Shown piece by piece: positions 16,395-28,266 of a stretch of 64,000 nt of DNA. The translations under genes and the position numbers were made by a program. The DNA comes from an uncultured bacterium. Lineage in GTDB: Bacteria > Schekmanbacteria > GWA2-38-11 > J061. Below the pieces are notes generated by a model. The model had not been told where the DNA came from and made no database searches. It was given only the letters and a program-made list of their open reading frames with translations. The stretch spans positions 46,164 through 110,163 of the forward strand of contig CAZJVM010000001.1 of NCBI GenBank assembly GCA_964549305.1. Reading direction: 5' to 3'. Within the stretch, counting starts at the first letter, position 1. The number at the start of each line of letters is the position of its first letter.

Positions 16395-16841
16395 ATGAAA
16401 AAAATATCGCTTAAAAAATCTGAAGACGCGTTTACACTTGTAGAAATTCTTGTTGCCATAGTAATCCTTTCTGTAGGACTTCTCTCAATAGCAAGTTTGG
16501 TTACAACTGTTATCAGGGGTAACGCAAAGAGCAGGCGAATGACTACGGCAATAACTCTTGCGCAAACGAAAATAGAAGAGTTGAAAAATCTGGATTATGA
16601 CGATAGCAAACTCGAAGATTCAAATACGGGCAACAATTCAAGCCTTACAAGCACATCATCCACTGACCACAGCGAAGCGGATATAGACGCGGAAGGGGGA
16701 ACAGGGGGAATTTATACGAGAATATGGAATGTTGCCGATGACACTCCTTCAACGAATATGAAAACTATTACGGTTATCATAAAGTGGGAAGAAAAGGGCA
16801 AGGAAAGAAAGACTGCGTTTACAACTATAATATCGGAATGA
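16395..16841 (+). CDS. pilV: Type IV minor pilin, PilV-like
   Basis: Class III signal A|FTLVEILVAIVILSVGLL, A..LAQ.KIEEL, C-terminal YTRIWNV...K.ITV.I.W; ATG 16395 after GGAGG. Confidence 0.88.
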   Translation: MKKISLKKSEDAFTLVEILVAIVILSVGLLSIASLVTTVIRGNAKSRRMTTAITLAQTKIEELKNLDYDDSKLEDSNTGNNSSLTSTSSTDHSEADIDAEGGTGGIYTRIWNVADDTPSTNMKTITVIIKWEEKGKERKTAFTTIISE

Positions 16842-16850
16842 GGATGAAAA

Positions 16851-17756
16851 GTGCGCGTGAAAAATAACAGGAATGGATTTACGCTTATAGAGTTGATGGT
16901 GTCGATACTTCTCGCATCTATACTTATGGTTACATTTTATACTCTTCTTACCAGTCAGCAGAGAACATACAACAGTCAGGATTTGATTGTTGAAATGCAG
17001 CAAAATGTGAGGACGGCAATGGATACTTTGACGAGGGAATTCAGGTCAATCGGATACGGAGTGCCTACTGCCGACACCCCTTCGGAAATTGCCGTTATAA
17101 GCAGCGCGACGGAAAACACCATAACCTTTCTCGTTGACCTTGATAATGTGAAGGCGACACTTACTGCCGACTACACGGCAGGAAATACTACTCTTTCCGT
17201 TGACACGGTGTCGGAGACATCTTCCGACAGTTATTATGGCAATTTTTCCGCAGGTGATACAATATATATAACTGACGGAAGCAAGTGGGAAGCCACTGAC
17301 GTGTCATCTACTTCCCAGGGGAGTTTGGGTATCGGGGCTTTAACCAATGATTTTTCCCAGGGGTCGGTGCTTCACGTAATCAACACAATTACGTATGCCC
17401 AGAATCCATCCGACCACAAACATTCGACTGATGCGCCAACCATTAAATTGACGCGGTCTGTTGACGGAAGCACGGCACAACCGGTAGTCGATGACATTGA
17501 TTATCTTGAATTCAAATACTATGATGATTCGGACAGTCAGGTCGGTTCAGCGACTCCATACAAGAGTGTAAGTTTATCTTCCGGTGATGTAGGCGACGTA
17601 AGGAAAATAAAAGTTCTTTTTATCGCGCGAACATCGAGAGAAGATCCAAGCTACTCGAGTTCCGGGGTCTATAACTGCGGCGACAAATACAGCGACCAAT
17701 ATCACAGATTAACACTGGAATCGGAAATAAAATTAAGAAATGCAGGATTGGAATGA
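16851..17756 (+). CDS. pilW: Type IV minor pilin, PilW-like
   Basis: G|FTLIELMVS, MQQNVRTAMD.L.REFRSIGY, LEFKYYD, C-terminal IKLRN. Confidence 0.88.
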   Translation: MRVKNNRNGFTLIELMVSILLASILMVTFYTLLTSQQRTYNSQDLIVEMQQNVRTAMDTLTREFRSIGYGVPTADTPSEIAVISSATENTITFLVDLDNVKATLTADYTAGNTTLSVDTVSETSSDSYYGNFSAGDTIYITDGSKWEATDVSSTSQGSLGIGALTNDFSQGSVLHVINTITYAQNPSDHKHSTDAPTIKLTRSVDGSTAQPVVDDIDYLEFKYYDDSDSQVGSATPYKSVSLSSGDVGDVRKIKVLFIARTSREDPSYSSSGVYNCGDKYSDQYHRLTLESEIKLRNAGLE

Positions 17757-17757
17757 T

Positions 17758-18819
17758 ATGAAAAATAACAAAATGTTAAGCAATGAGTCGGGATTTGTCC
17801 TTGCACTTGCAATGTTTCTTCTTGCTATTCTCACTGTGATCGGTCTCGGCGCGATTTTGATTACATCGACAGAGCTTAAGATATCGGGGAATCTCAGAAC
17901 TGCTACCGATGCCCTGTATGTGGCAGAGGGAGGTATGGAAATTACTGAAGGAAAATTGAAGGCAAACGCAGTGAGCAATTTTGCAGGAACAAGCGGGACA
18001 ACAAGCAATACGCAGATTTATGTCGTAGGAAAATCACCTAAAAACACCATTAAAAATCCTTTAAACTGGGTTGACACAAGCTGGTATATAGATTCGGATA
18101 TGACCACGCCCCTGTCCGAGGGCAATGCGGAAACCGTGACTGCTCTTTATAACAAATATACTATTGGTTCCGGGGAAGCCAATATTACACTGCCAAGACC
18201 TCAGTGGTTGTGGGTAAATCCCACGATTGTGGCGTTCAGAAACGTCAGGTCCACATTCTCGGGAACAAATGCCAAAAAAGTGGAAGCGGATATTGAAATA
18301 AGATTTGAAAATAATCTCCTTTCCTTTCAGGTGTTCAAAGACCCTTCTGACGGTGTATCCGATGTTGACAATATTTCCAACAACAATGTTATAATAGGAG
18401 GTACAGGTTATGATTTTGGAATCGATCCTGCATTAAGCAAGATTACGGGAATTTGCACGAACGATAACAGTACGAAAGCTATTATAATTTATAGGGATGG
18501 GGACAACAATTTAGCGACTTCAGACTGGACAATAGTCGGAGAACCGGAGATTAACACGACTAACAGTACATTTTGCCTCAGCAATGCGAGAGGTTACAGA
18601 TATACAGCTTTGGGTGGTGCCGGGTCAAAAGAACCGGTAGCGGTTTTAAGCGCAAGCGAATATATTCCCGATACTACGGGCGCGCCTGTTTTGTCAATCA
18701 GTAACGGGGAAATTTACAAGGTTGAACTTGTCGATATATCTATGCTTTCACGAAGTGCCGGAAATCCGGCGGGTTCATCGGCAGGAAGCTGGGTGTCGAA
18801 TACTTATAATCAATGGTAA
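17758..18819 (+). CDS. pilX: Type IV minor pilin, PilX-like
   Basis: NESG|FVLALAM (no Glu5), ELKISGN....ALYVAEGG, typical of the PilX N-terminal domain; third gene of a V-W-X cluster. Confidence 0.85.
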   Translation: MKNNKMLSNESGFVLALAMFLLAILTVIGLGAILITSTELKISGNLRTATDALYVAEGGMEITEGKLKANAVSNFAGTSGTTSNTQIYVVGKSPKNTIKNPLNWVDTSWYIDSDMTTPLSEGNAETVTALYNKYTIGSGEANITLPRPQWLWVNPTIVAFRNVRSTFSGTNAKKVEADIEIRFENNLLSFQVFKDPSDGVSDVDNISNNNVIIGGTGYDFGIDPALSKITGICTNDNSTKAIIIYRDGDNNLATSDWTIVGEPEINTTNSTFCLSNARGYRYTALGGAGSKEPVAVLSASEYIPDTTGAPVLSISNGEIYKVELVDISMLSRSAGNPAGSSAGSWVSNTYNQW

Positions 18820-18843: not shown

Positions 18844-19041
18844 ATGTTTAAAAATCTGATTTGGGTTTTAATGACTTTTCTGGCATTAGCGGTTGTAATA
18901 ACCTTTTCAACAGTGACAACGCGTGCCGATTCTGATACAAATTCAGCGAGTAATATGAATGCTCCGGTAAACGGCGCGCAGGGGACAGGCACCAATGCCG
19001 AGCCGAACTCGACAATAAAAAACTGGCACGAAGTAAATTAA
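18844..19041 (+). CDS. Small secreted peptide 1 (signal peptide + ~37-aa mature part ending TIKNWHEVN)
   Basis: RBS AAGGAG, Sec-type signal ending TRA, paralogous to the next ORF. Confidence 0.8.
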   Translation: MFKNLIWVLMTFLALAVVITFSTVTTRADSDTNSASNMNAPVNGAQGTGTNAEPNSTIKNWHEVN

Positions 19042-19084
19042 TGATGTATTTGTATAAATAAGATATATAAGAACGGAGGTTAAA

Positions 19085-19267
19085 ATGGCAAAAATAGTTA
19101 AAATGGTTTTGATATTACTCGTGTCAGGATTGATGAGCGCAACATTTACATTTGCAGTTACCACAAATTCAGACAGCAACTCAAACGCGAATGTTAATGG
19201 AGGAGGCGGACAGACTCAGCCATTTACGCCTTCTACTACAATAAAGAACTGGCACGAAGTCAAATAA
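19085..19267 (+). CDS. Small secreted peptide 2 (signal peptide + ~36-aa mature part ending TIKNWHEVK)
   Basis: RBS GGAGGT, Sec-type signal ending TFA; mature part aligns without gaps to peptide 1. Confidence 0.8.
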   Translation: MAKIVKMVLILLVSGLMSATFTFAVTTNSDSNSNANVNGGGGQTQPFTPSTTIKNWHEVK

Positions 19268-19370
19268 TTCAAATATTCCTGCATACATATAAGTAAATTT
19301 TACGTTGCGGACTGTCACTATAGTTGATTATCCCAACCGTTCACTTATTGTTCAGGCAGAGAGTCTAATA

Positions 19371-20291
19371 TTGAAGAAATTCCTTTTTCTTTTATTTCTT
19401 GTCATAGTCACGGCATTTTCAGGGTGTCACCGCATAAGCGATAATGAGCTTAGTGACGTGGAGTCCGCAATAGAGTCAAAAGATTACAATCGTGCTTTGA
19501 CAACTCTTTCACAACTCGCGGAAAAATATAAGGGAGATGCAATTGTCCATTATCTTTCGGGATACTGCTTTTTAAAAAAAGAAGACAACGAAGCGGCACT
19601 CAAAGCATTCAAAAGGACTTTTGATATAAGAAAAAATTACTCCGCAATGGTAGGTGATGTTGATGTGGCGAATTTTCTCGCCGGAAACAGTTTGTCGGCG
19701 GAAAACCCTTTCTTCAAGGGAGCGATGAGAGAACTCGATACGATTATAAGCAAAAACAGCGGGGGCGAAACGGAAGAAAGAATTCGCTATCACAAGGCAT
19801 CGCTTCTTCTTTTAAAAGACAAATATGATAAAGCAATCGATGAACTTGAAAAGATAATTGAAAATAAAGTAGTGTCTCCTTATGATGCAAAAGCATATTT
19901 GAAAATTGGAGAAATCACCGCTCAATATTTACAAAATGAAGATAAGGGACTTAGTATTATCAGCGCGCTTATTGACAAATATCCCAATGACAGGGAAACT
20001 TTGGCAGAGTCAATGATTTGGATTGCAGAATATAAGATTAAACGCGCGAATATGCTTAAAAAGAGGATCGAATCCCTCGAAGATTTTATCGAGTCATGGA
20101 AAGGGATAAAAGGGTTTCAGGAGGATATCAAAGAGGCAGTTGTGCAGATAGGGTCCGATAGTAAAAGCAGAAACAAATGTATTGCTGAAGCAAAGGAATA
20201 TATTGATAAAATCAACAGGGAATATGCGGGAAGCAATTTTGCCGAAAGGACAAAAATGCTTTTAAGTGGCCTAAATGCAGTTAACCGGTAA
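19371..20291 (+). CDS. TPR-repeat lipoprotein
   Basis: Lipobox FSGC after a hydrophobic stretch; TPR-like helices (HYLSGYCFL...AALKAFKR, AYLKIGEI). TTG 19371 is the likely start. Confidence 0.75.
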   Translation: MKKFLFLLFLVIVTAFSGCHRISDNELSDVESAIESKDYNRALTTLSQLAEKYKGDAIVHYLSGYCFLKKEDNEAALKAFKRTFDIRKNYSAMVGDVDVANFLAGNSLSAENPFFKGAMRELDTIISKNSGGETEERIRYHKASLLLLKDKYDKAIDELEKIIENKVVSPYDAKAYLKIGEITAQYLQNEDKGLSIISALIDKYPNDRETLAESMIWIAEYKIKRANMLKKRIESLEDFIESWKGIKGFQEDIKEAVVQIGSDSKSRNKCIAEAKEYIDKINREYAGSNFAERTKMLLSGLNAVNR

Positions 20292-21792
20292 AGGGTTCAC
20301 TGTGAAAGATGCAAATCTGAAAACAAAAATCACAAAATACCTCCTTGTGGCAATGACACTTCTTTTTCTTTTCTTTCTCCTGTTCAACATTCAGTATTCA
20401 TATGAGGGGATAGTAGGTTACGACGGTTATTACCACATTAAAATAGCAAAAAATATGGGAGAGAAAGGAGTTCTATCTCCCGATGCGTCGCTGATGTATC
20501 TTCCGGGAGGTGAGCAATTTGTTGACCATCACTACCTCTATCACATACTGCTTATACCATTCACCTTTTCCAATCTCATTGACGGTGCCAAGAATTCGGC
20601 TATATTTTTTGATATGCTTCTGCTGATGGTTTTATCGTATATTTTGATAAAGCTTGATGTTAAAAATCCATATCTCTGGATTCTTGTACTCTTCTCTTTG
20701 TCTGAAACGTTTATCTTCAGGTTGTCTCTTCCGCGCGCAACTATACCTTCGCTAATAATCCTCATTTTAGCCTGGTATTTTATGATAAAGGAAAAATATA
20801 TTCCTCTGGCAGGATTATCCTTACTTTTCCCGAGTTTCTACGGAGGATATACGGCGATTTTTATACCTCTCTCTGCTGTCATATGTTCTGTATATATAAG
20901 GAATAAACGATTTAATTACAAAGTGGTTATTGCTGTTATATCAGGTGTTACATTAGGTAATATAATTAATCCTTTTTTTCCCGACAACCTGAAATTTATC
21001 TATCTTCAGACTACTTCTGCGGGACTTTTCAGAGTGGCAAGAGGTGGTTCGGAGTGGATGTCATTTGCGCCGGAAGAATTTATAAGGACGCAGTTTGCTT
21101 TTATCTTTCTTTTTTTGGTTACGCTTTATATTGCGGCAATTGACGACAAAAAGATGAATAAGGAGGCATTGTCCCTTTTCTTTATCTCCCTTCCTTTGAT
21201 TGCAATCAGTTTTTTCTGGCGAAGATTTATAGAATTGTCGGTGCCCTTTTCATTGCTCTTTTCGGCAACGGTTTTCAGAGATTGCACTTTGGATAATATT
21301 ACGGGATTTAGTAAGGGGGGTAAAAAAATATCGTCTGCTCTCGTGATATTCCTCACGGTCTTTTTCAGCGCGGGGAGTTATTATACGGCAAAATCGGCAA
21401 CCGAGGAGATTAAATCGGATTTTCGTTCTCCCGGAAGGTACAGTCAGGGAGCAAAATGGATTTACGAAAATGCTCCGGGAATACCTGTGTATCTTACCGA
21501 TTGGGATGACTATCCGGAACTCTATTTTTATAATTCCTTTAATAGGTATCTTATAGGTCTTGACCCCGCGTTTCTCTATATTTATGATAAAGAAATGTAT
21601 AAAATATGGATAGAAATTAATGCCGGAAAATATAAGGGCGATTTAAAGAAGGCGTTTACTGAAGTATTTAAAACCCCGCTAATATTTACTGACAATACTC
21701 ACGGTGATTTTGTAAGATATAGTTCCGGATATGATTGGATTAAATTGCGATACAGCGATTCCTATTGTAAAATATACAGCATTATTCCCTGA
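20275..21792 (+). CDS. Polytopic GT-C fold glycosyltransferase, STT3/AglB-like
   Basis: DGYYH after TM1, many TM segments, SEW loop, soluble C-domain AKWIYEN..VYLTDWDDYP. Confidence 0.6.
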   Translation: MQLTGKGFTVKDANLKTKITKYLLVAMTLLFLFFLLFNIQYSYEGIVGYDGYYHIKIAKNMGEKGVLSPDASLMYLPGGEQFVDHHYLYHILLIPFTFSNLIDGAKNSAIFFDMLLLMVLSYILIKLDVKNPYLWILVLFSLSETFIFRLSLPRATIPSLIILILAWYFMIKEKYIPLAGLSLLFPSFYGGYTAIFIPLSAVICSVYIRNKRFNYKVVIAVISGVTLGNIINPFFPDNLKFIYLQTTSAGLFRVARGGSEWMSFAPEEFIRTQFAFIFLFLVTLYIAAIDDKKMNKEALSLFFISLPLIAISFFWRRFIELSVPFSLLFSATVFRDCTLDNITGFSKGGKKISSALVIFLTVFFSAGSYYTAKSATEEIKSDFRSPGRYSQGAKWIYENAPGIPVYLTDWDDYPELYFYNSFNRYLIGLDPAFLYIYDKEMYKIWIEINAGKYKGDLKKAFTEVFKTPLIFTDNTHGDFVRYSSGYDWIKLRYSDSYCKIYSIIP

Positions 21793-22564: not shown

Positions 22565-24553
22565 TCATTGCTCGTTTTGAACCTTTTTCGCAATTACAGC
22601 AAAAAATGGTTTTTGACTCTCATTACTTTCATACATACCTTCCGCTATATGATATCCTTTTCCGAGGACAACTGTTGTTTTAATATACTTCTTTTTCTTC
22701 GATAAACTTTTTGAAATTATTCTGCCGTCAACGGAAAGAGTGAAATTCCCCCTGGAAAAAATATAGAGGCGATAAGCGCCTTTTTCAGTTGTACGAATAA
22801 TCGAATTGAACGTTGCCTGAGAAAAATCACCGATGCTTGCAATTAGCGGGAATATATTATTTCCAGTTTTCTCTTTTTCCGCGAAGGGGTTAAAAGATAT
22901 TACAGTATTCTTCCAAATATCTTTTTGCTTACCGAAGAGGATAAAATCATTTTCCGTTGATTTGTCCAGACTTTTATAAATAGACAGAAGAGGGACACCG
23001 TTATGATTATTTGAAAAAACCGGTATCATCTGCTCCGTATAAAATTCCTCTTCTTCCCCAAGGAGACCTTCTCTGTGGTTTATTATAATGTAATCATAAT
23101 CGTCTTCATCGTAAATCACATCATTTGAAAGAATACCGTAATCGTAATAGTAATCAAAAAGTATGGTGTTGAATAAAGCCCTGCCTGCTATTTTTTTACT
23201 GCGCAGATTATTGTTGATGAATCCGAGGGTATTTTTGTTAAAGGCGTCACCCCAATATGTTGTTTCCATCCCGATTTTTTTCGCGCCTTTCAAACCTCCC
23301 GCGTAAATATTGAAGTATGAAAGCTCGTAAGGGTGAATGCCGTAAAGAGATATGGCGGACGAGAGTATAAGGAGGGAGGAAAGTATATAGGCGCCTGCCG
23401 CGGATTTCCCGCGAAAGCAGAGCATTTTTATTTTCATAAAACCGAATCCCGAAAGAATTGCGAGAAAGGGAAATGCGGGAAGAAAAAGTCTCTCTCCGTC
23501 ATATGAAGGAGCGATACCCGATGAAACAACAATTAAGGGGATAAGCGCGTTGATTAGAATAAATATGGCATATTTCTCATTTGAAATGTTTACTGATTTG
23601 GCGAAAACTTCTTTCAGGCGATTGAAAAGATTTATTGCGATTGCAGTAACTGAAATTACAATGAGCAATATATATGGCGCGGGAATGGTAAAGAATGACA
23701 ATAAAAAAGGATAGTGCCAGGGAAGAGCGTTTGAATTGAATTTTTTGCCGAGGTAATATGTCCGTACCACAAAGTCTTCTGTGTGAGTTGACATTCCGGA
23801 AATAAATTCTGTGAAGTGCGATGTAAAATCCACCCAAAGCCAGGGATTTGTAAAGTAAAAAACCGCTATTGCCCCCATTGTCCCGAAGGTTAAAATGGAA
23901 AATTTTTTTTTGTCGGGAAAAAGAATAAGCCATAAAAAAATCGCAACCGGAATCAGTGCCGATTGTGCTTTTGTGCAAAAAGAAAGCCCGAGAGAAAGAG
24001 CAAAGAGATATTTATAGATTGGCTTTTCGTCACATTTCAGAAAGAAAAAAACTGTTAAGGTCCACATAAAAGTTACAGGTATGTCGAGAGCGAAGATATG
24101 TCCGTGACCGAACATTCGCGGCATAAACAGAAGTCCCAGTGACGCTGTGAAAGCTGATATATAATCGGTAAATCGAAGTGTAATGAGAAATACAAGGGCG
24201 CAGATTATGGAAAACATTATCTCAGGAGAAATTCTCAGCGCTTTGATTTCACCGGCAATATTTCCGAAAAAAATGAGTGATAAGGCGTGCATCATCCTTC
24301 CGAAAGGCGGATGATAATGAAAATGTCCGCCGAAATATTTTTCTATGCTCTCTTTACTTCTGAATGTTGTGAAATCCCCCCTGATGATATCCTTTGCCGT
24401 CATAGACATCCATTGGGCAAAGGAATGGGCGGCGGAATCGTTTATCCACGCTTCATCGCAGGTTATGCCTATATCGCTTGTCGTTGAATAGAGGAGAAGA
24501 AAAGCGAATAAGGCAATAAACACAGCGACAAGTATATTTTTATTTCTGTTCAA
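22565..24553 (-). CDS. ArnT/PMT-family (GT-C) glycosyltransferase with C-terminal PA14-like domain
   Basis: GITCDE, HPPFGR, PRMFGHGH...D, YDGERLFLP, HPYELSYFN, ETTYWG; C-terminal G.YRLY...L.VDG...L.KGYH. Confidence 0.75.
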   Translation of the reverse strand: MNRNKNILVAVFIALFAFLLLYSTTSDIGITCDEAWINDSAAHSFAQWMSMTAKDIIRGDFTTFRSKESIEKYFGGHFHYHPPFGRMMHALSLIFFGNIAGEIKALRISPEIMFSIICALVFLITLRFTDYISAFTASLGLLFMPRMFGHGHIFALDIPVTFMWTLTVFFFLKCDEKPIYKYLFALSLGLSFCTKAQSALIPVAIFLWLILFPDKKKFSILTFGTMGAIAVFYFTNPWLWVDFTSHFTEFISGMSTHTEDFVVRTYYLGKKFNSNALPWHYPFLLSFFTIPAPYILLIVISVTAIAINLFNRLKEVFAKSVNISNEKYAIFILINALIPLIVVSSGIAPSYDGERLFLPAFPFLAILSGFGFMKIKMLCFRGKSAAGAYILSSLLILSSAISLYGIHPYELSYFNIYAGGLKGAKKIGMETTYWGDAFNKNTLGFINNNLRSKKIAGRALFNTILFDYYYDYGILSNDVIYDEDDYDYIIINHREGLLGEEEEFYTEQMIPVFSNNHNGVPLLSIYKSLDKSTENDFILFGKQKDIWKNTVISFNPFAEKEKTGNNIFPLIASIGDFSQATFNSIIRTTEKGAYRLYIFSRGNFTLSVDGRIISKSLSKKKKYIKTTVVLGKGYHIAEGMYESNESQKPFFAVIAKKVQNEQ

Positions 24554-25381: not shown

Positions 25382-26965
25382 ATGTTTCATTTGAAAAAAT
25401 ATTTAATTCTGCTTTTAATGGCAGTGATAATTCTTGTTTCTCTGGCATTTCCAAACAGGGATTACAGTTACGATTCAATCGAATATGCCATCGAAGCAAA
25501 TAATCAGGCACCTTCAATCCATCCTCATCATCTTCTCTTTTATCCCACAATAAAAGCTGTCAGTTTTTTATTCACATCTTTCGGCGGAGATGAACTGTTT
25601 GGAATGATGCCGGTACAGTTTATGAATATAATTCTTTTCCCATTTGCCGTCCTGTTTTTTTATCTAATAATCCTTAATATCTCAAACAACATAGGGCACT
25701 CGATTATTACTTCCATGATTTTTGGTTTTTCAGGCGGTATATGGACACTTTCTCTTGATAATGAGGTACATACACTGCCTCTTTTATTTTTACTGCTTTC
25801 CATTTACCTCTTTATTTCGAAGTCATCCGTCATCCTTGCTGCAATGGTTTTCGCATTATCAATCCTTTATCATCAGTCTTATATTCTTGCATTGCCGTCT
25901 ATTGCCTATCTTGTATATTCATTCTTGCCGGAGAAAAGAATATTCAGGGCATTTCTGTTTTCAATAACCTCTGTTTTTTTAACGGCAGGCGCTTATATCA
26001 CCGCGGCAATTATAGAGGGAAGGACAAGTCCCGGTGAAATAATAAAATGGATGCTCTTTTACACTGAATCAGGTAAATGGGGTTCACTTTCACTTTCTAA
26101 TTTCTTTTATTCCGGCGCAGGCATCTTTCAGCTGTTTTTCGCGCCGAGACTCATGCGCTTGATTATTTTCGGGGAAAAAATACACGGCACAGAATATCTC
26201 TATTTATTTCTTGAAGTTATAGGCGCAGTGCTTATAGCAGTAATCTATTTTATTCTGTTTAAGAGAAGTCTTAAGGATAATTTTCCGAAAAACAAGCTTC
26301 TGAATTTTTCTATAATCTTTATCATTCCATTTTCGGCGTTTGCTTTTTTCTGGGAACCTCAGAATGTTGAATTCTGGATACCTGTTTTTATTCCTTTACT
26401 GCTTATGATTCCATTATTCGCTTCATCCGGAGGAAGGAACTTCGGGAAAGATTCACCGTCAGGAAATGATGCAGGTATAAAAATTATCCCTCTCCTTTGC
26501 GCGCTGTTATTCATAATAATGTTCACTCATAATCTCTTTTCTGCTGTTATCCCAGCATCGAATATTCAGAACAATGAAACATATCTTTTTGCAGAGAAGA
26601 TTTCTGAGTATATTTCAGATGGCGACCTGCTCATTCATAATAAGAAAAGGCCAGTGTCATATCTGAAGTATTTTTTTAAAAAGGAACCAGACTATACTTC
26701 ATTCGCGGAGTTTCCTCTTTCTAAATGGAAAAACCCGGATGAAATAAAAGAAAATATTAGAGAGCAAATTGATAACCATATTGAAAATCATAAAAAGGTG
26801 GTAATAACATCATCTGAGACAAACCCTCCTGAATATGACCCCGCACTTACGCGGGTAATCAATGGGAAAGATAGAAGCGAGTTCTATAAAAAAATTATTA
26901 CTCAAGAGAAAAAGCAAATTAAGCTTTATTGGAAAGATATGAAGTTGTTAATTATTCAGAAATGA
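25382..26965 (+). CDS. Polytopic membrane protein, probable GT-C glycosyltransferase
   Basis: YDS..YA and HPHHLLF after TM1, EVH, HQ motifs, about 11 TM segments plus C-terminal soluble domain. Confidence 0.6.
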   Translation: MFHLKKYLILLLMAVIILVSLAFPNRDYSYDSIEYAIEANNQAPSIHPHHLLFYPTIKAVSFLFTSFGGDELFGMMPVQFMNIILFPFAVLFFYLIILNISNNIGHSIITSMIFGFSGGIWTLSLDNEVHTLPLLFLLLSIYLFISKSSVILAAMVFALSILYHQSYILALPSIAYLVYSFLPEKRIFRAFLFSITSVFLTAGAYITAAIIEGRTSPGEIIKWMLFYTESGKWGSLSLSNFFYSGAGIFQLFFAPRLMRLIIFGEKIHGTEYLYLFLEVIGAVLIAVIYFILFKRSLKDNFPKNKLLNFSIIFIIPFSAFAFFWEPQNVEFWIPVFIPLLLMIPLFASSGGRNFGKDSPSGNDAGIKIIPLLCALLFIIMFTHNLFSAVIPASNIQNNETYLFAEKISEYISDGDLLIHNKKRPVSYLKYFFKKEPDYTSFAEFPLSKWKNPDEIKENIREQIDNHIENHKKVVITSSETNPPEYDPALTRVINGKDRSEFYKKIITQEKKQIKLYWKDMKLLIIQK

Positions 26966-26967
26966 AA

Positions 26968-28266
26968 TTATGAAAACACTTTTTCGTAACCTTCCTTTAG
27001 TATGTAGATATTACCAGCAAGTCTACCGACAAGTAGGGCAAATGCCGCGCCTGATGCAGAATATTCAGGCACTAAATAAACGGAGAAAATAAAAAGAATT
27101 ACAACAGTTATCATATTCTGTCTGAACACGACTTTTGAATCTCCAAGTGAGAAGAGAGCAAAGACAACAGGTTTGCATATAATCTCTACGATAAGACTGA
27201 TATAGAGAATTATGAAGGGATAAGTTGCCGGCAGGTAGTCTTCGCCGAAAAAGAGGGATATAATTTTACCGGAGAAGGGAAGAATAAAGAGAGTAGGTGT
27301 GAGTATGAGTGAAATAATGGCGATACTTTTTATTGTGAATTTGCGCAATTCTTTTCTATCGTTCAGAGACGACGCTTTCGGAAGAAGAAGAGTGGAAAGA
27401 GTTGTGGATATCAATATTAGCGCTTCCGAAAGCCTGTCAGCGGCATAATAATATCCGAGACTTACGGCAGATGTAAGTTTTATAAGGATGAAGTGATTGA
27501 GCTTTAATCTCATAGCTTCCGTCACATTGGCGAGGTAAATCCATTTGCCGAAACTGAATAGCTCTTTGCCTGAATTCCATAAATCCTTTGATTGAGAAGA
27601 GTACCGCCTGTAGCAGGCAATCATTCCGAAAAATGCGGAAATCAGTGGAATGAAAAAGAGGTAAACGGCAATTGCCGCGGGAAGAGTAAGAAGGTCGTAC
27701 GCCTCAAATGCCAGCACGAGGACAAGAGTTAAAATCGCGGAACCTCCTCTCAGGATGGAGTATATGAAGAACGATTGCTCCATCCTAAGCACTGACACTA
27801 CAACGTCATAAATCATGATACCGGGAATTGAGCAGAACCCGAGAAGAATTGCCGTATCCAAAGATTGATTGTTGAAAAAAAGATTTGCTACAGGTCGTGC
27901 AACAAAAATACCGGCCAAAAGGATTATCACGCTCAATATGAGCTTTATCAACAGATTGGCGCGGACAATGGAAATCATTTTTTCAATGTTTGAGGATGTT
28001 CTCTGTTTTGCGCCTTCAGTTATCGTTGCCGTGTCGAAACCGAATTCGAATAACTCATTCACGATTTCGGTAAATGATACTATAAGGGCGAATATACCCA
28101 ACTCTTTGGCGCCGAGACTTCTTGAAAAAATAATAAATGTGGCAAATCCTGCTCCTAGTTTTACCGCGTTTGAAGTGAGAAGAAGGGTGCTTTCCTTCGC
28201 TATTCTTTTCCCGCTGAAACTTTCATTTTCTAACATTTCAATGGTTTTATCCTGTGAGGCGGTCAT
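26968..28266 (-). CDS. Wzx-type polysaccharide flippase
   Basis: SRSLGAKELGIFAL, LGYYYAA.RL, LLPKAS, FGEDY..A, GAAFA; MOP-family pattern. Confidence 0.85.
   Translation of the reverse strand: MTASQDKTIEMLENESFSGKRIAKESTLLLTSNAVKLGAGFATFIIFSRSLGAKELGIFALIVSFTEIVNELFEFGFDTATITEGAKQRTSSNIEKMISIVRANLLIKLILSVIILLAGIFVARPVANLFFNNQSLDTAILLGFCSIPGIMIYDVVVSVLRMEQSFFIYSILRGGSAILTLVLVLAFEAYDLLTLPAAIAVYLFFIPLISAFFGMIACYRRYSSQSKDLWNSGKELFSFGKWIYLANVTEAMRLKLNHFILIKLTSAVSLGYYYAADRLSEALILISTTLSTLLLPKASSLNDRKELRKFTIKSIAIISLILTPTLFILPFSGKIISLFFGEDYLPATYPFIILYISLIVEIICKPVVFALFSLGDSKVVFRQNMITVVILFIFSVYLVPEYSASGAAFALLVGRLAGNIYILKEGYEKVFS

Follow-up and report, generated by a model that had tools for sequence, protein, structure and literature searches.

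Two micro-proteins encoded directly after pilX are candidate stand-alone donors of the C-beta strand of type IV pili in Candidatus Schekmanbacteria

In the window (the whole stretch of 64,000 nucleotides that was analysed), the minor pilin genes pilV-pilW-pilX are directly followed, at the gene position of PilY1/PilC, by two very small genes, A and B (Table 1). The locus raises the question of what two such products do in the place of a tip adhesin. The first-pass annotation had reported two tiny ORFs at this position, each preceded by a ribosome-binding site (RBS), and this description was found to be accurate. Our answer is that each of the two micro-proteins probably acts on its own as a donor of what has been published as the "C-beta" licensing strand for type IV pili.

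Table 1. Coordinates of the genes and gene parts in the pilV-pilW-pilX region of the window
Feature	Coordinates	Strand	Remarks
pilV-like minor pilin (PilI equivalent)	16395-16841	+	N_methyl motif; TIGR02523 E 7.6e-10, below cut-off; start set from RBS and ATG (locus L001)
pilW-like minor pilin (PilJ equivalent)	16851-17756	+	N_methyl; PF16074 E 1.9e-5, just below cut-off
pilX (PilK equivalent)	17740-18819	+	PF14341 above cut-off; ~342 aa mature
PilX 162-173, predicted acceptor edge strand	18274-18309	+	Predicted complex interface; strand E162-171 in monomer model
Micro-protein A (ORF A)	18844-19041	+	65 aa; AAGGAG ahead of ATG
Micro-protein A, tail strand	19006-19038	+	Preceded by presumed signal peptide (1-28) and N/S/T/G-rich linker
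Micro-protein B (ORF B)	19085-19267	+	60 aa; GGAGG ahead of ATG
Micro-protein B, predicted interface	19220-19261	+	Other parts: presumed signal peptide (1-24), linker, tail strand
TPR protein	19305-20291	+	Invariant lipobox-like Cys after hydrophobic start
505-aa polytopic membrane protein	20275-21792	+	GT-C fold (STT3/DPY19-like) predicted; syntenic in G000-G003

A and B were identical at 20 of their last 36 residues in an ungapped alignment, and 21 codons including the stop codon were shared, 11 of them as synonymous variants. The mature proteins would comprise 36-37 residues, about half of which are N, S, T or G, contain no Cys and end in the common tail T-I-K-N-W-H-E-V. The gapless match of the mature parts noted earlier holds for the A/B pair but not across the orthologues, in which the linker carries indels and only the tail and an S-x-x-N-x-N element are fixed; K-N-W-H-E was invariant in all eight aligned peptide rows. 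In the 11 tail codons, the pooled pS was 0.74 versus a pN of 0.10, and pN was 0.39 in the rest of the peptide gene (12 pairs, which are not independent). The peptide genes are thus under protein-level purifying selection, with near-saturated synonymous sites. The variation at third codon positions led us to reject an element acting at the level of DNA or RNA. Four sequencing runs aligned to this contig showed only shallow DNA variants, with an in-frame loss of 6 bases in ORF B. Scans for promoters and terminators yielded no signal that clearly exceeded chance, and between pilX and the peptide genes no terminator was found. No Pfam match was obtained for A or B, and NCBIfam gave only two weak, below-cut-off matches on the hydrophobic start of B. 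It was confirmed that A and B are real small genes.

The distribution of this arrangement was followed with PilX as the query, which matched 16 of 61 genomes and gave a full-length match only in four (G000-G003, of which G000 is the genome of the window). Small ORFs were located directly after pilX in all four, with two copies in G001, two in G002 and one in G003; one further copy was present at a metagenome locus (L029). G001-G003 are assigned to Ca. Schekmanbacteria by the database names of their relatives. The peptide genes have been kept across two families with RBS, start and stop intact. A profile search of the kind suggested by the first-pass annotation recovered 11 proteins out of 583 candidates, all with the K-N-W-H-E tail and two named Ca. 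Schekmanbacteria, and every homologue of known context was linked to pilX; all of these context data stem from a single small lineage of relatives. The genome of the window, which is split over 169 contigs and 100% complete by markers, contains only one PilX_N match, next to a distinct type II secretion system whose gene cluster includes a GspK of its own. Its fimU/gspH-like gene (L149:445-1059, contig C5 of G000) is unlinked from pilV-pilW-pilX, whereas it is linked in G003 and G004. G002 also has a second pilX, of 555 aa, followed by a 91-aa ORF (L025:8057-8332) with a signal-like segment, a Pro-rich end and no W tail.

The pilin sheet of PilK/PilX in Neisseria and Acinetobacter is completed by the C-terminal ~10 residues of PilC/PilY1, which are necessary, the same C-terminal strand fused to PilK/PilX is partly sufficient, giving partial rescue, and systems without an adhesin supply the strand in cis, according to the accessible text of PMC13533445. 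The published motif consists of W, a charged residue or a pair of them, and next a hydrophobic residue, and in Kingella the Trp and the hydrophobic residue matter (accessible text of PMC13711793). The peptides end in W-H-E-V, that is, in Trp, a charged residue and a terminal hydrophobic residue, with an atypical His at W+1, where R (36) and K (19) are the common residues among 76 tails.

The frequency of W-x-E within the last 16 residues was examined with 83 complete PilX proteins out of 85 from other bacteria (82 of 90 places, the eight places of the own order being left out, plus three). The motif was present in 26 of 65 long PilX and in none of the 18 short ones, in five of 10 large genes after a short PilX and in 20 of 2039 background ORFs. 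Among the 65 long PilX, 30 had no W motif even in a loose form; therefore, an absent motif is no proof of an absent strand. A matrix built from 76 distinct, unrelated PilX/PilY1 tails, with no peptide in the training set, placed B (9.07) first and A (6.31) second among 1353 signal-like ORFs of the genome, 159 of which have a late W, and the next ORF scored 3.33. Since the training tails were selected for the W motif, this ranking shows likeness of the flanks and of W+2 given a Trp, and not necessity of the motif. B and A fell at the 67th and 42nd percentiles of the leave-one-out training scores, and the tails of the peptide-linked PilX proteins themselves scored −2.4 to −12.7, at or below the 13th percentile. 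A smaller matrix of 41 tails gave the peptides scores of just 1.25 and 3.31, which most training tails exceeded and which were reached by 10 and 4, respectively, of 254 background ORFs with a W tail. Taken as sequences, the A and B tails are best described as donor-type tails.

A donor needs an acceptor, and we therefore turned to PilX. The AF2 model (15 rows; mean pLDDT 79) consists of a pilin head, a beta-rich accessory domain and a low-confidence tail, the blocks of which have pLDDT values of 55, 59 and 47 without a continuous strand. PilX 34-176 matched ComZ (6QVI, chain residues 8-129; Z 7.5, 96 aligned residues at rmsd 3.0) as well as GspK (3CI0; Z 7.2, 94 aligned residues at rmsd 3.3); these Z values below 8 are modest, yet all of the top seven structure rows were pilins. 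Foldseek gave no PilX match at E up to 0.001, the accessory domain received only scores below 0.8 in the structure atlas, and a PDB sequence search gave no match for PilX, the peptides or the GspK of this genome. A PilY1 query of the PDB returned only the isolated 3HX6.

The complex of PilX 28-342 and mature peptide B was then predicted with the PilX tail included as a competitor. The score was 0.70 (runs of 0.70, 0.72 and 0.69) versus 0.02 for the best of three controls, and it may reflect likeness to the solved cis structures of GspK and ComZ, in which case any W-x-E strand might dock. The score mark is reached by 116 of 157 solved complexes and two of 215 mismatched pairs, counts that are rough with our own alignments. 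Contact agreement in the runs was at least 55%, with a low partner pLDDT of 51-53. In the prediction, peptide B residues 22-35 contact PilX 162-173 and helix 42-65, residues 26-34 run antiparallel to PilX 171-164 in the last pilin strand, and the invariant peptide Glu would lie near PilX Lys162/163. The predicted site on the pilin sheet of PilX corresponds to the place of the published C-beta strand. The prediction supports peptide-PilX binding without demonstrating it.

It is unlikely that the PilX tail itself completes the sheet and that the peptides are unrelated secreted factors, such as ligands or clients of the TPR protein or acceptors of the GT-C protein, although the tail pattern W-x-S...W/F is conserved in seven close homologues and a W-x-S...W tail is kept in the peptide-linked ones. 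The first-pass annotation had itself raised the point that the PilX C terminus might already fill the groove; the tail is of low confidence in the monomer (pLDDT 47-59), is not of the W-x-E form, ranks poorly as a donor as described above and is located outside the listed interface when peptide B is present in the prediction. The downstream genes are as syntenic as pilX, the TPR gene being retained in all five peptide loci that reach that far, and TPR domains bind C-terminal peptides, which would fit a client relationship. The 505-aa protein gave STT3 and DPY19 as top Foldseek matches (E about 5e-5 to 1e-4, TMq 0.45-0.54, model pLDDT 59), PMT_2, Dpy19 and STT3 as neighbors in the atlas within a Pfam-less bacterial cluster set, and no Pfam, NCBIfam or PDB sequence match. 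It carries invariant G-Y-D-G-Y-Y-H and D-W-D-D motifs, the latter of which we take to resemble the WWDYG motif of STT3. On this modelled fold it is possibly a glycosyltransferase. Against a role of the peptides as its acceptors, N-x-S/T sequons occur in only four of eight peptides at positions that are not conserved, and its homologues were found in nine of 251 genomes, five of which are other genomes with no pilin gene within ~1.5 kb. Other glycosylation-type genes in the window encode a PMT_2 protein (22565-24553, − strand), a weakly TMEM260-like protein (25382-26965, + strand) and a polysaccharide flippase (26968-28266, − strand).

The absence of PilY1 bears on a second alternative. PF05567 was detected in none of five genomes of the order versus all 10 control genomes, which had been chosen for a short pilX and a large next gene, so that the search for a full pilY1 recommended in the first-pass annotation came back empty. 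An HMM of 10 donor C-termini detected only BamB/PQQ-type propellers in the genome of the window (best E 3.3e-7), and left-out donors were recovered with the same HMM at 1e-19 to 1e-86. pilT, pilQ and pilM were above cut-off in all five genomes, indicating that type IVa pilus machinery is present. As no PilY1 was found, there is no support for the earlier suggestion of competition between the peptides and real adhesins. It is conceivable that the peptides bind PilX as placeholders, chaperones or inhibitors and are later displaced by an unlinked non-PilY1 adhesin: complex prediction is blind to permanent versus transient caps, non-PilY1 donors such as MshQ exist (accessible text of PMC13533445), and the genome is in many contigs. 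We regard this as decidedly improbable, given that the next-best tail among the signal-bearing ORFs scored 3.3 versus 9.1 and 6.3 for the peptides and that PilY1 is absent from five genomes, including one complete by its markers.

The mode of export separates a third alternative from the preferred reading. In all eight peptides, the best 13-mer had a Kyte-Doolittle (KD) value of 2.05-3.31 with one to three K/R within the first seven residues, and an Ala read by eye stood at the presumed −1 site before the polar linker in all eight aligned rows; no N_methyl or pilin match, which would indicate a class III signal peptide, was found in A or B. From charge, hydropathy and this Ala, Sec export and removal of the signal peptide are presumed. 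The strongly hydrophobic h-regions (KD up to 3.3) would also suit an uncleaved N-terminal membrane anchor, making the strand an inner-membrane-tethered licensing factor and not a tip-borne one, a highly improbable arrangement considering that the Ala fits signal peptidase I and that a buried strand could hardly leave PilX, as argued in the accessible text of PMC13533445. A last reading, in which the ORFs would be relics of a lost pilY1 in decay or a functionless duplicated DNA element, as their short, low-complexity sequences without a family match might suggest, is scarcely credible and largely refuted by purifying selection with near-saturated synonymous sites and by their retention in two families as intact genes.

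Stand-alone strand donation can be outlined as a series of putative steps. Each micro-protein would be exported by Sec and lose its signal peptide, and its last ~10 residues (S/T-T-I-K-N-W-H-E-V) would join the open edge of the PilX pilin sheet as an antiparallel beta-strand packed on helix alpha1C of PilX. By analogy with the mechanism in Neisseria, Acinetobacter and Kingella, the completed PilX would be recognised by PilV-PilW and prime type IV pilus assembly. The other ~25 residues would form a flexible N/S/T/G-rich stub, the micro-proteins presumably being carried on the pilus tip, and the PilX accessory beta domain probably takes the adhesive or cap role of PilY1. The two copies may be redundant or alternative caps, one being enough in the sister family. 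The earlier proposal of a docking strand alone on a flexible linker is thus supported by synteny, by the lack of PilY1 with positive controls, by the tail ranking and by the complex at PilX 162-173. A pilus tip glycosylated by the 505-aa putative enzyme is possible. It is rather unlikely that all parts form a dedicated capping pathway, in which a split tip pilin receives a TPR-handled 36-residue peptide, the stub is glycosylated by the STT3/DPY19-like enzyme, and two interchangeable peptides yield different tips and a piliation switch via a tiny gene.

The micro-donors look confined to this lineage since none was found after PilX at the other loci examined, namely at the 83 complete PilX described above and at 55 complete PilX of 60 loci in two other phyla. 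The latter survey included 30 loci for each phylum, drawn from 50 (of 201) and 47 (of 301) matching genomes, and covered the downstream genes for the 23 PilX without a W tail, with up to ~1.3 kb of room. A contig search with PilX gave no related loci, and one with a Nitrospinota homologue gave only two N-terminal matches. Eight distant PilX proteins of the same subfamily (P0019, P0020, P0026, P0028, P0029, P0030, P0031 and P0041), two of them named Nitrospinota, likewise have no terminal W-x-E and would be expected to depend on a donor in trans; tail-less homologues from Nitrospinota include MBI3599119.1 and MBF0275865.1. At L082 (G169), an apparent micro-gene behind pilX was rejected as the last piece, with a W-x tail, of a frameshifted long PilX. 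Secreted ORFs of 107-151 aa after short PilX (L181, L189, L191, L194 and L219) were not accepted as replacements, as they precede large proteins with a terminal W-R tail. A conserved secreted protein of 127-151 aa with two Cys and no Pfam match (L181:2043-2498, L189:1997-2389, L191:2127-2528 and L194:2060-2443) is encoded in four genomes from the G401 phylum, with a short pilX on one side and a large PilY1-like gene on the other. Swappable tip pilins are suggested by loci at which a single pilV-pilW set is followed by at least two long pilX paralogues in tandem (L024:7202-10204 in G004, L067 in G250, L098 in G138 and L114 in G247).

Two natural forms have been recognised so far in the strand-addition model of 2026, the tail of a large adhesin in trans and the PilX tail in cis, and the myxobacterial models in the accessible text of PMC13190605 agree with strand addition. 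A lineage with a bare 36-residue donor, if true, would add a third to these forms and amount to a minimal experiment made by nature. Fusions of the tail to PilK/PilX rescued only partly, so that the model does not settle whether efficient initiation requires the propeller, and licensing of pilus assembly by a free trans peptide becomes testable. No report of a natural free-standing donor was found in the accessible literature searched. The micro-proteins suggest a tiny tag for pilus-tip cargo, may represent a stage lying between cis PilX and trans PilY1, and are a warning for annotation, sub-70-aa tip subunits being easily missed.

As for their origin, PilX proteins with a large trans donor comprise 147-233 aa (12 cases) and W-tailed cis PilX at least 305 aa (35 cases); the PilX described here, with 342 aa, an accessory C-terminal beta domain and no W-x-E tail of its own, falls within the cis-type size range. 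A small or polar residue precedes the Trp in 60 of 71 cis tails and in two of 14 trans tails; in the peptides this residue is Asn. Some trans donors have Ser before the Trp. This pattern is only a hint of fission because it was spotted after the fact, kin are not independent and such trans donors occur. In G004, orthologues of fimU, pilV and pilW (the last two 81% and 59% identical to those of G003) precede two long PilX, of which the second has a W-x-E end. This genome, which is 70% complete and in which an N run covers the end of the first PilX, gave no peptide match (best E 0.72), and its apparent 1000-aa PilX was rejected as a reading through N runs that joins two genes. In G003, a peptide-linked PilX occurs alongside a cis PilX that is unlinked. 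Fission of a long cis-type PilX, with the last strand gaining its own signal peptide, is weakly supported as the likeliest origin over shrinkage of PilY1.

Compared with known systems, the micro-proteins share with the PilC/PilY1 C-beta of N. gonorrhoeae PilC, A. baylyi PilY1 and K. kingae PilC1/2, as presented in the accessible text of PMC13533445 and PMC13711793, a gene after pilX, presumed Sec-type export and a terminal W-x-E-hydrophobic strand that would be added in trans to PilX/PilK. Unlike PilC/PilY1, they have no propeller, large N-terminal adhesin domain or Cys and comprise 36-37 mature residues versus about 680-1840 in the donors examined; with 60-65 aa they are too small for a PF05567 propeller and, having none, are not members of the PilY1 family. 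They also differ from the published minimal constructs, in which the strand is fused in cis to PilK/PilX and among which the accessible text of these two papers includes no free trans peptide. A head followed by an accessory domain in a genome without PilY1 is found likewise in cis-type PilX/PilK proteins (T. thermophilus ComZ, cyanobacterial PilX, C. crescentus CpaL and T2SS GspK), the cyanobacterial PilX having an inserted domain before the last strand (accessible text of PMC13759059). Here, unlike in those proteins, the final strand would be encoded apart from PilX, by one gene or two, and exported with a signal peptide of its own. V. cholerae MshQ is similarly a non-PilY1 protein in the pilY1 slot and a predicted strand donor (accessible text of PMC13533445). 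It differs in size, with ~1200 residues versus ~60 here. The split pilin PilA-N/PilA-C of Geobacter is a heterodimer and resembles the present case in that a pilin fold is completed by a second, separately encoded chain. Unlike here, where a tip pilin would receive a single strand, that pair forms the major pilin and its second chain is a whole head domain. The names PilA-N and PilA-C are confirmed in the accessible text of PMC9207759, which disputes the relevance of the heterodimer. The idea of a "micro-PilY1" therefore stands as a role and not as a family: the micro-proteins would work like the tail of PilY1, and their tail pattern and the size of their PilX hint at a cis-type PilX cut in two.
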